A DNA stretch of 64,000 nt. It comes from a virus. The notes beneath the pieces were generated by a model that saw only the letters and a list, made by a program, of their open reading frames with translations, was not told where the DNA came from and searched no databases. The translations under genes and the position numbers were made by a program. Numbering within the stretch: the first letter of the stretch is position 1; every line of letters begins with the position of its first letter. Positions 25,425-50,737 of this stretch are shown piece after piece. Location of the stretch: IMG/VR virus record IMGVR_UViG_3300009499_000114, positions 14,579 through 78,578 of that record; one strand, given 5' to 3'.

Positions 25425-27185
25425 ATGGACATCAGCATCGTCTCGGGAACTTACAATCGCCTTCCGTTTCTCAAACGCATGGTCGAGACCGCCCGGAGTT
25501 CACTCAAAATTCTCTCTGGCCTGACCCATGAGTTCGTATTGGTTGACGGGGGTAGCCAGGATGGGACGCAGGACTGGTGCCGGGCGCAATCCGATGTACG
25601 GCTGATTGAACACGAAAAACTTTTTGGCGCGGTCAAGGCGTTCAACGACGGGGCTTTCGCGGCGCACGGTGACTATGTGGTCCTGGCGAACGACGACGTG
25701 GAGTTCCTGGGCAACACGCTGGCCCTGGGATGGATATATATGCAGGATCATCCCGACTGCGGGATAGGCTGCTTCTACCAGGACCGCAACAAACGAGACT
25801 GGCACGTTGAAAGCATGCCGGTCGTACGCGACGGCCGGCAGGAGCACGCGCCCTACGGCCAGGTGTGCATCGTGCCCAAATGGCTAGGCGACCGCGTGGG
25901 ATGGTGGGGCGATTATCTGCATACCTATGGTGGAGACAATGAACTTAGTTCACAGGTATATGCATTAGGTTTCAAGGTCTCACCAGTCCCGGATACGAAA
26001 GTTCACGACAACGAACCCGATGACGATCTGCGGCGCATCAATAATATTACGGGCGGGAAGGACCCGCGGGCAGTGGCGGGCCACCACCCGGATTCCTGGA
26101 AGTGGGGCAAGAGGTGGCGCAACGAGGCCGAGAACTTGGTCGGTCCGGTCATCCGGGATGCGCCTGCCGTGGAATTTCCTTTCTCGGTCGTGAAGGAACG
26201 GGTACTCTACCTTCCGGTGTATGAGCAAGGATGGCCTGTTCAAAAAGAACAGAAACGGGGCCTGCGCGAGGCATTGGGACGGGTGACGTTGGTTTCCGAG
26301 TACGACTATCTGACGCGAGATGCGGAAATAGGCGGGGCGGCGATGTTGGCTGAACTTCAGCGATTATGCCAGGAATCACAGCCCACGCTGGTGCTGACCC
26401 AGATCCACAACTCGGACGTCATCAGCCCCGACGGAATTGGGACGTTGCGCAGGGCAGTTCCCAATGCCCGCTTCGTCAACTGGAATGGCGACTTCTGGCC
26501 CGACAATCTGCTGAGCGAAGCGGGGCTGCGGCTGGCGCGGTCGTTTGACTTGCAGACGACCGTCAACCGCGACGCGCTGGAGAAGTACCGTGAGCAAGGC
26601 ATCCGGGCCGAGTACTGGCAGATCGGGTGGGAGCCCGACGGCGTGGGGCACGAGCCGGAGGAACGCTTCGACCTGGTATTCCTAGCGAGCGGGTATTCCC
26701 CTGCGCGGCACAAGCTGGTCGGGTTCCTGCGCAACCTGGCCGACGTCAAGTTCGGCCTGTGGGGTCCGGGCTGGCCCGACGGCTGGGCCAGGGGCCAGAA
26801 CGTCTACGACTTCGTTGAGGCTTGCAGGTGCTACCGGGGCGCCAAAATCAGCCTGGGCGACAGCCAGTGGCCCGATTCTGGCTTCGTCAGCAACCGCGTC
26901 TTCCAGGCGCTGGCGGCGGGGGGCTCGGCCCTGGCATACCAACGGTTCAGGGGCATGGAGGAATTGGGCCTGGTGGATGGCGAAACGGTCATCGTCTGGG
27001 AAGACCATGGCAGCCTGGAGGCAAAGGTCAGATACTTTCTGGCGCACGAGGTCGAGCGGCAGCGCATCGCACGGGCGGGCGAGGCCCTGGCGCTGAACCG
27101 TCACTCGTTCGACAACCGGGTGCAGGAACTGTTCGGGTGGGTCGGCGCGAGGGAGCAGCCCCAAGAGGAGAACTGGCGGTGGTGA
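25425..27185 (+). CDS. GT2 + CgeB-like GT-B fusion glycosyltransferase
   Basis: [20 protein letters not shown]; the C-half has [17 protein letters not shown]. Confidence 0.9.
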
Positions 27186-27865
27186 TGGAGTTGGATACTA
27201 TCGTTGTGGGTGACTGCCTAGACGTGATGGCGGGGATGCCGGACGGGTGCGTGGATCTGGTGGTGACTGATCCATTGTTTGTATTACCTGTCCATACTGC
27301 TGCCTCGCGTAAGCGAATAAGAAACCTGGGAGATTTCTCACCATCTAGTTGTCAGATGTCTATAGTTTTTGAACAATTAGAACGCATTTGTAAATCATCA
27401 AGCAGATTATTCTTTTTCTGCGACGACAAATTCTATCCTATATTATTTATAATGAGCTATGAGCAGTGGTATCTACAACTCTTGGTGTGGGATAAAGGAC
27501 GTATAGGTTTTGGCACTGATTTCAGGAAACAGTTTGAAATGATTCTTTATCTTCGGGGAGAAGATGCACCGTTATTAGAGCGTAAGAATAATAAATCTGA
27601 TGTCTTGAAATGTACGCCGGTTCCATCGGGGGAGCGATTGGTAGAAGCACAAAAACCCGAAAATCTGATTCTGGATTTGCTCGATGGTATTCCCGGTGAT
27701 CTAATCTTTGATCCCTTTGTTGGTTCCGGTACTACCGCCGTTGCAGCCCTCAAGCTGGGCCGTCATTTCTATGGCTGCGACATCAATCCCGACTACGTGA
27801 GGCTGGCGAACGAGCGGATCAAGAAAACGCGCCTAGAGATGGCGCAGATGGAGATGGAACTATGA
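27185..27865 (+). CDS. beta-class amino-DNA methyltransferase (atypical DPLF motif)
   Basis: [27 protein letters not shown]. Confidence 0.85.
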
Positions 27866-28824
27866 CCGACTTCTGGAAAGGCAAGAAAGTTATCGTGACC
27901 GGCGGAGCAGGCTTCCTGGGTTCGCACCTGGTCCCGCGCCTGACAGACGCGGGCGCGTCGGTATTCGTGCCCCGGTCGGCGCAGTACGACCTGCGCACGG
28001 AAGACGGCGTGACGCGCATGTTCGAGGACGCGGGCCCATCCAACGTGCTGTTTCATCTGGCGGCGACCGTGGGCGGCATCGGGGCCAACCAGCAGAGGCC
28101 GGCGGACTTCATCTACGACAACCTGGTGATGAACGCGCTGATGGTCGAGCAGAGCCGAAAGGCCGAAGTCGGGAAGTTCGTGGGCCTGGGCAGCGTATGC
28201 GCCTACCCCAGGACGATGATGGTCTACCCGATGCGCGAGGAGAACATCTTCGAGGGTTACCCGGAGCCGACAAACGCACCCTACGGCATTGCCAAGCGGG
28301 CGCTACTGGTGCACCTCCAGGCGGCCCGCAGGCAGTACGGGTTCAACGGCATCTGCCTGTTCCCAACCAACCTGTACGGCCCGGGCGATTCGTTTGACCC
28401 GGAGACGAGCCACGTCGTGCCAGCTATCATCAGCAAGATGGTGGAGGCCCGACGCCAGAACAAATTCGAGTTGACTCTGTGGGGCACTGGACGTCCGACC
28501 CGTGACTTCCTATATGTGGAGGATGCCGCTGGCGGCCTGATGCTGGCTGCCGAAAAGTACAACCGGCCAGAACCGATCAATTTGGGAAGCGGGCGGGAAA
28601 CTACCATCGCCGGCTTGGCGGAGGCCATAGAGCGGATCGTGGAATACGAGGGACAAATCGTTTGGGATAAAAGCAAGCCGGACGGTCAGCCTCGTCGAGT
28701 GCTAAATTCCGAAAGGGCAGCTTACGAATTCGGGTGGCGGGCGATGACTAACCTAGGGGAAGGTCTTGAGAAGACGGTCCGGTGGTACGAAGAAATCTCA
28801 GAAGAGGAGATTAGCCTTGCCTGA
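27862..28824 (+). CDS. fcl: GDP-L-fucose synthase
   Basis: [51 protein letters not shown]. Confidence 0.93.
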
Positions 28825-49485: not shown

Positions 49486-49800
49486 TCATATACGAGAAAT
49501 CTGATGCTCTCTGACAGATAGTTCTTTCATCGGGCCTTTCCAGGCATCCCAAATTGGTGGAAAGAATTTCTTGACTAAGTTTTCAAAGCCATCCGATTTG
49601 ATGTCGTCAATCCCACGTGCAAAGGCTTTCCATTTTCTGTCTTGCTCAATGATAATGGCAATCATGGCTTCATTGCTTTTGGCATGGCGCATCTCTGCAA
49701 TTTCTTCTATCTCAGCTATGAATGAATTTGCAATACTAACTAGAACTTCGCCAGTCGGATTAGCATTAAATTCTACTATATAGTCTTTGGCTTTCTTCAT
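49486..49800 (-). CDS. hypothetical protein
   Basis: AAAGGA RBS; 104 aa. Confidence 0.6.
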   Translation of the reverse strand: MKKAKDYIVEFNANPTGEVLVSIANSFIAEIEEIAEMRHAKSNEAMIAIIIEQDRKWKAFARGIDDIKSDGFENLVKKFFPPIWDAWKGPMKELSVREHQISRI

Positions 49801-50017
49801 TTGGCTTCCTTTCTATCAAGATTTCCCGGCAGGCAGTCTGGCTAGACATTCTAAAATACCCAGTCTGCTTTTACCTATCGTGCAGTGTCCACTGCCTGCC
49901 GGGATTGCCGGTCGGTGTCTGACATAGTGCGCCAGCCCTTACCGTTCCCGTCCCTTACGGCACCCGTTATCGCTGGCATGACCGGCTTAGCTACTTATAA
50001 TTATTCTCATGAGCAAT

Positions 50018-50737
50018 TTATGTTCTTAACGACAATTCCATCTGGGACATTTCCATCCGCGTCTTTTCGATTCGCGCGTTCGCCAATCTCACATAGTCGG
50101 GGTTGACGTCGCAGCCATAGAAGTGGTGGTTAAGTTTGAGGGCGGCGACAGCAGTCGTGCCAGAACCGATGAAGGGATCAAAGACAATTATGTTCTCTGG
50201 CATTTCTGATGTTGCTATTGTTCTGGAAACAAGCTCTTCTGGCTTCTCCGCAGGATGTCCGTTAGGCCGTGCTGATGTCCACTTACAAGACCATATATCA
50301 CTTATTGATCTATCCTCTATATAGAACCCTGACTTAGCTGCCATTGCGATCAACTCATAATTTTGCCTAAGTCCCCGAGTGCTCCCTACGCCGGGCCACT
50401 GTTTATCCCATACAACCACTGAGGTTAGGAACATTCCTGAGACGTAACTGGTAGCACACTGAACTACCGGCAAAGAGTGCCAACTACAAAATGTCCAAAG
50501 AGCCCCGGTATCTTTCAAGATGCGCCACACCTCACGATACCAGAGGGAAAACCATTTCGCTGCGTTATTTATGTCTGCCCATCCCATAGCCTTATTAGAA
50601 GATCGTCTAGAACTTGCGGAAGCTAAGCTATAAGGCGGATCAGTCACCACCAGATCTACGCACCCGTCCGGCATCCCCGCCATCACGTCCAGGCAGTCGC
50701 CTACCACGACAGTATCAAGCTCAAACGAAAAATCCAT
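50018..50737 (-). CDS. beta-class amino-DNA methyltransferase (DPPY)
   Basis: VTDPPY..HPAEKP..FDPFIGSGTT. Confidence 0.92.
   Translation of the reverse strand: MDFSFELDTVVVGDCLDVMAGMPDGCVDLVVTDPPYSLASASSRRSSNKAMGWADINNAAKWFSLWYREVWRILKDTGALWTFCSWHSLPVVQCATSYVSGMFLTSVVVWDKQWPGVGSTRGLRQNYELIAMAAKSGFYIEDRSISDIWSCKWTSARPNGHPAEKPEELVSRTIATSEMPENIIVFDPFIGSGTTAVAALKLNHHFYGCDVNPDYVRLANARIEKTRMEMSQMELSLRT
50637..50698. repeat. 62-bp inverted copy of 27212-27273 (2 mismatches)
   Basis: Direct comparison of the two MTase 5' segments. Confidence 0.9.

Follow-up and report, generated by a model that had tools for sequence, protein, structure and literature searches.

Recombination inside the genes of DNA modification enzymes is known from both bacteria and phages. 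In the Type III mod genes of Helicobacter pylori, target-recognition domains (TRDs) move between non-orthologous genes (Furuta and Kobayashi, 2012, PMC3467074), and the phase-variable Type III mod alleles of Haemophilus influenzae possess a hypervariable central region (Bayliss et al., 2006, PMC1557822). Orphan methylases of actinophages show recombination within the gene (Gosselin et al., 2023, PMC9957025), and invertible Type I hsdS shufflons have been described, for example pneumococcal SpnIII (PMC6620402). Here we examine three beta-class DNA methyltransferases (MTases), MT1, MT2 and MT3, encoded by an uncultured phage in a 64-kb stretch of DNA that spans bases 14579-78578 of an IMG/VR viral contig (78.6 kb, with a completeness rating of 89%); this stretch is referred to as the window and positions are counted from its first base. 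The three enzymes share their ends and differ in their middles, and the locus is a phage example of the module swapping already known from bacterial restriction-modification genes.

MT1 and MT3 lie on opposite strands, and a repeat search of the window (the initial annotation of this DNA had proposed a dot-plot) found that the longest inverted pairs are the two ends of these genes, namely an N-terminal pair of arms (I2) of 86 nt with 91% identity and a C-terminal pair (I1) of 148 nt with 78% identity (Table 1). The N-terminal arms include a 62-bp core (27212-27273 and 50637-50698) in which 60 of 62 positions match, 32 and 20 of them in uninterrupted runs, and in which 18 of 20 codons are identical between the two genes. 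Alignment confirmed the earlier statement that this identity stops at the Asp-Pro codons of motif IV, the last shared position being the third one of the Pro codon. Both copies of the core contain two GATC sites (GGATCT and TGATCC), at 27254-27273 and 50637-50656. The ends of MT2 match this window type mainly at the protein level (PDYVRLAN...EKTRLEMSQ).

Beyond these ends the three proteins part company, beginning with motif IV itself, which the translations confirm to be DPLF in MT1, DWPY in MT2 and DPPY in MT3. The initial annotation had described shared ends around largely unrelated middles that are AT-rich in MT1 and MT3; the ends and the composition were borne out, but the middles of MT1 and MT3 align colinearly with approximately 25% identity (44% for the whole proteins) and are, on this alignment, very divergent homologues rather than unrelated sequence. 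Their GC content is 39% in MT1 and 46% in MT3, compared with 55% for the window, and no such AT-richness is seen in MT2. At third codon positions the GC content (GC3) of N-terminus, middle and C-terminus is 70/35/66% in MT1 and 68/42/65% in MT3 (Fisher tests of termini against middle, p = 2e-6 and 3e-4, respectively), compared with a uniform 73/69/72% in MT2, and the genes that flank MT1 have a GC3 of 76-77% against the 35% of its middle.

The DPLF middle also occurs outside this phage, in a clade of six sequences that are 64-79% identical overall and in which DPLF is invariant. One member is found on a second, 75-kb viral contig (G001), which has eight matches to the MTase family PF01555 on one strand, six of them intact. 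Three of the G001 paralogs (L031, L032 and L033) share ends of their own type (…AADRLGRRFFGCDINP…), which form direct repeats with 74-83% identity at the C-termini and up to 88% at the N-termini, and it is L032 that bears the DPLF middle between these G001-type ends. The middle of MT1 is 73% identical to that of this gene with its own genome's termini, and the two orthologues are 72% identical, compared with 25-37% for the few other genes common to both phages. Their settings differ, since the DPLF middle belongs to a glycosylation operon in this phage, whereas in G001 it is part of an early MTase cluster. Overall, this middle is found with three types of C-terminus, and window-type ends (73-87% identical) are in turn paired in metagenome proteins with about ten types of middle, including SPPY, SPHY, DPPY, DPPF and DPPH forms, some of which are orthologous to other G001 paralogs. 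DPLF and DWPY are each conserved within their own clade, and relatives show further variants of motif IV (DLPY, DPAY, DPWY and others). G001 also contains an MTase split into a 139-aa N-terminal open reading frame (ORF) overlapping a 120-aa C-terminal one, and another copy with an in-frame TGA (L036:13329-14065 (-) and G001:C1:47968-48495 (-)); on their sequences, these broken copies suggest that the paralog family turns over by birth and death.

Phylogenetic trees of the two parts disagree in the same manner. In the tree of the termini, MT1, MT3 and MT2 group together (96/92) and the G001 paralogs stand apart (96/98), while in the tree of the middles MT1 joins the DPLF genes found in other genomes (100/98) and MT3 joins P0018 (99/97). 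Approximately unbiased (AU) tests reject the opposite groupings both for the ends (p = 0.001 and 5e-4) and for the middles (p = 4e-41 and 2e-33). The initial annotation had allowed that middles might co-evolve with their flanks and that recombinant alleles might not exist; instead the trees conflict, the termini track the genome, and the comparison of middles across phages that it suggested turned up, in a distant phage, an allele in which an orthologous DPLF middle is joined to different ends. A mosaic ancestry of MT1-MT3, in which middles and flanks have different histories and recombinant alleles exist, is supported by these sequences.

We think it likely that the middles have been traded among genes and distantly related phages, over evolutionary time, by homologous recombination at the conserved ends, and that the ends have been homogenised among paralogs inside one genome. 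The enzymes are orphan beta-class DNA amino-methyltransferases with which the phage most likely pre-methylates its own DNA against host restriction. Each would consist of a chassis and a replaceable middle: the chassis comprising; 1) approximately 30 N-terminal residues (strand, helix and strand beta4, leading to motif IV); and, 2) approximately 50 C-terminal residues (motif I FxGxG, then a helix and a strand, and finally a long helix); and the middle comprising 145-260 residues with motifs V-VIII and the DNA-recognition region. DNA for the two ends may be sufficiently alike across MTase genes to serve as an anchor for homologous recombination. MTase genes on unrelated contigs match the N-core DNA with 80-92% identity, and recombination anchors are therefore widely available; between MT1 and MT3 the core offers the flank similarity that recombination needs (60/62, with the 32-nt exact run), whereas identity at the C-terminus is no more than 78% and the synonymous sites there are saturated. 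The near-identity of the 62-bp core would be the latest conversion tract, stopping where homology stops. Exchange among the copies of one genome would only reassort the middles already present, such that new specificities would have to come from other genomes; the different middles presumably confer different specificities.

The chassis can be placed on a predicted fold. The AlphaFold (AF2) model of MT3 has a mean predicted local distance difference test (pLDDT) score of 89.9, and its best PDB matches are CcrM (6PBD), M.BceJIV and M.MboIIA, this likeness being seen also at the sequence level. In this model the N-terminal shared end forms a strand (9-12), a helix (15-20) and a strand (27-32) that leads to DPPY, and the C-terminal shared end forms a strand (184-187, motif I), a helix (194-201), a strand (205-210) and a helix (213-238). 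From general knowledge of beta-class enzymes we take the shared ends to be the cofactor-binding half of the Rossmann fold, and we infer that the constant chassis is the half that binds S-adenosylmethionine (AdoMet); on this reading, motifs V-VIII and the recognition loops would lie in the middle.

The C-terminal tails of these enzymes suggest a further reason for constancy. Bacterial clients of the beta sliding clamp bind it through a C-terminal motif, QL(S/D)LF (review, PMC9690074). These MTases and many of their relatives resemble such clients in that Q-[LM]-x-[LM]-F or Q-x-x-[LM]-x-[LF] occurs at or near their very end. When the motif is relaxed to Qxx[LM][FL] or Qxx[LM]x[LF] and looked for among the 12 final residues, the tails of MT1 (QMEMEL), MT3 (QMELSL(RT)) and MT2 (QLKMPF(T)) fit, with near misses in MT5 (QMEMSI, in the tail QMEMSIG) and MT4 (LPLF, in the tail GLPLFGKTAL). 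Only four of 63 window genes fit, three of them being MT1-MT3. The six intact G001 enzymes all end in QLxLL, QYPLF, QMGLGI or PPLF, even where their C-termini otherwise differ, and relatives often end in QLSLF, QLALFG, QLVLF or QLRLF following Pro/Lys-rich linkers. The pattern is present in 25% of 68 IMG/VR enzymes (generic MTases collected with very general peptide patterns and chosen irrespective of their tails), in 45% of MT1 homologues and in 42% of MT2 homologues, against a background of 3-7% in shuffled tails and 0.1-2% in windows taken from protein bodies. There are differences from the known clients, in that the motif of MT1-MT3 has Met where Leu is usual and that of MT3 ends a confidently predicted helix in the model rather than a loose linker. 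A literature search, incomplete in its coverage, returned no paper linking clamp-binding motifs to prokaryotic DNA MTases and no MTase among the described clients. DnaN, PolA and PolB were not found encoded in the contig (89% complete), and replication therefore probably relies on host machinery.

We tentatively propose that the shared ends are a phage-specific chassis, an AdoMet half with a putative C-terminal docking peptide for the beta clamp of the host, required of every MTase of the phage; conversion and selection would keep this chassis uniform within each genome, traded specificity modules would be plugged into it, and DNA would be methylated at the fork with changeable specificities. 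If this is the case, docking on a common partner would be the functional reason for the constant ends. A shared partner of this kind would be a selective reason for constancy and is therefore also the main support for the view that selection, rather than exchange, has shaped the ends.

That view, in which constraint acts without any recombination, appears unlikely to us. It holds that one cofactor pocket and a common partner, for example the host sliding clamp, keep the ends genome-specific, and that the 62-bp identity is amino-acid conservation combined with codon bias. The C-terminal segments of MT1 and MT3 are consistent with this, having saturated synonymous sites (proportion of synonymous differences, pS, 0.75) and a nonsynonymous divergence (dN) of 0.11, as is the N-core DNA, which keeps its 80-92% identity even on unrelated contigs; moreover, putative clamp-binding-like tails on MTases with different C-termini (MT4, MT5 and G001 L026, L028 and L030) point to function. 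However, the match of the core, with its 18 of 20 identical codons, exceeds that background. In codons 10-30 the synonymous divergence (dS) between MT1 and MT3 is 0.23 and dN is 0, and because dS is so low here compared with the saturated C-terminus, the N-terminal core is, on these counts, the sole tract of recent exchange between the two genes. Constraint would also leave unexplained why GC3 steps by 25-35 points exactly at the homology borders, and under it each G001 paralog would have had to acquire more than ten replacements in parallel within the buried region that follows motif I. Furthermore, the order of dN is reversed between orthologues and paralogs: MT1 and MT3 differ most in the middle (dN ~1.0), whereas MT1 and L032 differ less in the middle (dN 0.20) than at the C-terminus (dN 0.365), which is contrary to one shared history. 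The GC3 steps, the 60/62 tract and this reversal together argue that exchange also occurs.

A programmed invertible or cassette switch, similar to a shufflon, in which the 62-bp repeat flips 23.4 kb or shuffles middles within the population and so varies specificity or the timing of expression, is in our judgement very improbable, despite the inverted repeats at both ends of two oppositely oriented paralogs. MT1 lies in a late/glycosylation operon and MT3 behind its own promoter-like site, and an inversion would indeed swap these expression contexts; the predicted product of a crossover in the core is the MT3 body behind the glycosyltransferase and the MT1 body behind the MT3 promoter-like site. 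The initial annotation had envisaged a crossover that inverts about 23 kb with the tail genes, and its extent is correct (23.4 kb, with the tape-measure gene), but only upstream context would be exchanged, since the N-terminal residues that change places are nearly identical and specificity is left as it was. Two exchanges between MT1 and MT3 would yield no more than a second copy of one middle, with loss of the other, and an inversion would separate the virion operon upstream from the tail genes, among them the tape measure (36699-39170). The repeat is imperfect and coding, the equivalent repeats of G001 are direct and not inverted, there are no silent promoterless partial cassettes, all copies being full-length ORFs in their own operon contexts, and the 78.6-kb contig (89% complete) has no match to serine (PF00239) or tyrosine (PF00589) recombinases. 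Of the recombination-driven cassette system first proposed, mosaicism by recombination is upheld by the trees, the AU tests and GC3, but a dedicated cassette or inversion system is not, given the lack of both recombinase and silent cassettes. The Sak4-like recombinase invoked to aid it is a 382-aa P-loop protein (62043-63191, (-)) with only a sub-threshold match to AAA_24 (24 bits against a cut-off of 27), and a Sak4-type identity was rejected as unproven. What the sequences best support is an exchange of modules over evolutionary time, as in the mod genes of Helicobacter, rather than a programmed switch. Least credible of all is that the contig is chimeric, joined or flipped at the repeat. 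This is a metagenome assembly and repeats can be misjoined, but the longest exact match, at 32 nt, is below the final k-mers usually used, the gene order is normal with convergent arms meeting at ~44340, MT1 overlaps the start and stop codons of both its neighbours, and the mosaic pattern is repeated in the independent contig G001.

Several points weigh against module exchange by recombination and should be set beside it. The likeness of MT1 and MT3 at the C-terminus is judged to be old and held at the protein level, because synonymous sites there are saturated, and could persist by selection alone. The identity table was already at hand when the groups compared in the trees were named, and the two smaller p-values are weakened by this; the comparison at the DNA level covers two multi-paralog genomes only. 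A megablast search with 28 kb found no close relative among 50,697 phage records, and scans of IMG/VR and metagenome contigs with single proteins gave relatives of at most 45% identity over the whole protein; with no close relative found, recent recombinants of this particular genome have not been seen. Finally, DPLF and DWPY are non-canonical forms of motif IV, and both methylation activity and specificity are predictions from sequence.

The phage genome has two convergent arms that meet at ~44340, with plus-strand virion and glycosylation genes up to ~44.3 kb followed by minus-strand early genes. The three MTases of the initial annotation are borne out as such by their translations and by their matches to PF01555 (N6_N4_Mtase; E-values of 1.6e-22, 7e-38 and 1.9e-41 among the trio), although the count was too low, as the window encodes five (Table 1). 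Bit scores to this family are 81 for MT1, 131 for MT3, 143 for MT2 and 90 for MT4, with a cut-off of 26.7. MT5 was recognised by PHROGs alone (PHROG 67, 'DNA methyltransferase', E 4e-24), having no Pfam match at E<=0.001 and no NCBIfam match; it is insert-rich, with DPPY near the N-terminus and FGGTGS near the C-terminus, and lies three genes downstream of MT1 within the virion/glycosylation arm. All five keep the beta-class order, with motif IV N-terminal and AdoMet motif I (FxGxG) C-terminal, and motif IV is canonical (DPPY or SPPY) in MT3, MT4 and MT5 and non-canonical in MT1 and MT2.

Table 1. Methyltransferase genes, their shared segments and a promoter-like site in the 64-kb window.
Feature	Position	Strand	Description	Basis
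MT1	27185..27865	+	226-aa beta-class DNA MTase, motif IV DPLF	PF01555
MT1 N-terminal shared segment	27188..27273	+	arm I2, core 27212-27273	
MT1 middle, AT-rich	27275..27704	+	predicted motifs V-VIII and target-recognition region; orthologue in G001	
MT1 C-terminal shared segment	27705..27852	+	arm I1; motif I FxGxG to tail QMEMEL; 78% nt identity with MT3	
MT5	30223..32244	+	673-aa candidate beta-class MTase, tail AQMEMSIG; outside the shared-termini set	PHROG 67
MT2	44372..45397	-	341-aa DWPY MTase, very large family	PF01555
MT3	50018..50737	-	239-aa DPPY MTase, CcrM / M.BceJIV-like fold	PF01555, AF2 model
MT3 repeat arms	50637-50722 (N-terminus), 50037-50184 (C-terminus)	-		
Sigma-70-like promoter match	51134..51162	-	TTGACA-17-TATAGT, 11/12, with TG; ~400 nt upstream of MT3	consensus match only
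MT4	57145..58653	-	502-aa SPPY MTase, large insert, termini different, tail GLPLFGKTAL	PF01555

MT1 is fitted closely between its neighbours, its start overlapping the stop of the upstream glycosyltransferase (TGATG) and its end the start of the downstream epimerase (ATGA); judged by these overlaps, it is translationally coupled to both, and this seamless coupling fits an old resident gene whose interior has been replaced. It is the sole DNA enzyme in a long sugar-modification island (19280-30226, (+)) that includes a C-methyltransferase, a nucleotidyltransferase, a phosphonate-type binding protein with a permease, several glycosyltransferases and an epimerase. The possibility that MT1 belongs to the surrounding sugar pathway was rejected, its G001 orthologue having unrelated neighbours, as was the possibility of a decayed pseudo-enzyme, DPLF being kept in six sequences and the low middle dN relative to the G001 orthologue being accompanied by saturated dS. 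Expression of MT3 separately from MT1 is suggested by the promoter-like match upstream of it. Together with a downstream 104-aa gene (49486-49800, GC 40%), MT3 forms a low-GC islet (49400-50800) between genes of 63-64% GC; an HNH-helicase gene (53610-55589) has likewise 40% GC, and the composition of the phage is patchy overall.

Two small Cys-rich (CxxC...CxxC) proteins without any family match (46998-47375 and 56774-57148, both (-)) are paralogs with 77% identity and constitute a direct DNA repeat (47027-47318 and 56776-57067, 75%). One is upstream of the helicase-MT2 pair, and the other is between MT4 and a DUF5131 gene, which resembles Gp37/Gp68 and weakly matches radical-SAM mobile pair protein A. 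An MTase, a small ORF and a DUF5131 gene follow one another both in the window (55829-58653, (-)) and in G001 (L036:1421-3831, (-)), and the recurrence of this order in a distant phage suggests that MTase and DUF5131 genes form a conserved module. An actin-like partition protein of the ParM type (60127-61116, (-); ALP_N / MreB-like_C) may point to a prophage stage resembling a plasmid, or to active segregation of DNA.

Phage methyltransferases are a main escape route from restriction-modification, and recent virome surveys associate them with broad host range (PMC12636319). This locus shows how a phage lineage can renew its methylation repertoire, with a short constant frame that is kept and a catalytic/recognition middle imported from distant phages, and it gives beta-class enzymes natural and testable module boundaries at motif IV and motif I. 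The same superfamily, of the PF01555 type, is concerned in H. pylori mod, where a variable centre likewise lies between conserved motif-encoding DNA, movement is between paralogs at different loci and is explained by homologous recombination at those motifs, the trees of centre and remainder are incongruent and the centres are of horizontal origin. However, the phage genes are small, stand-alone orphans without a res partner, the swapped piece takes in almost everything between motif IV and motif I rather than the TRD alone, and the flanks that are kept amount to only ~30 and ~50 residues, are genome-specific and have received middles from distantly related phages. The mod alleles of H. influenzae also have conserved 5' and 3' parts around a hypervariable centre, which in that case sets specificity and whose allelic mosaicism is attributed to recombination, but they are alleles of one chromosomal locus with on/off switching by a repeat tract, whereas here there are several paralogs in one phage genome and no repeat-tract phase variation was seen. 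With the actinophage methylases the present genes share the status of phage orphans, a patchy distribution, a reticulate history and AU-tested incongruence within the gene; that case, in contrast, is one of elements (intein, homing endonuclease, ShiLan domain) inserted at conserved sites, and is not about replacement of a catalytic/recognition middle or concerted evolution of paralog ends. The hsdS shufflons have in common with this locus inverted repeats inside paralogous specificity genes and a diversified methylation, but they include partial hsdS cassettes that are silent, a dedicated recombinase is usually present, and the switching takes place inside a clone. Of these systems it is the 'domain movement' idea from Helicobacter that the phage locus extends, to orphan phage enzymes.

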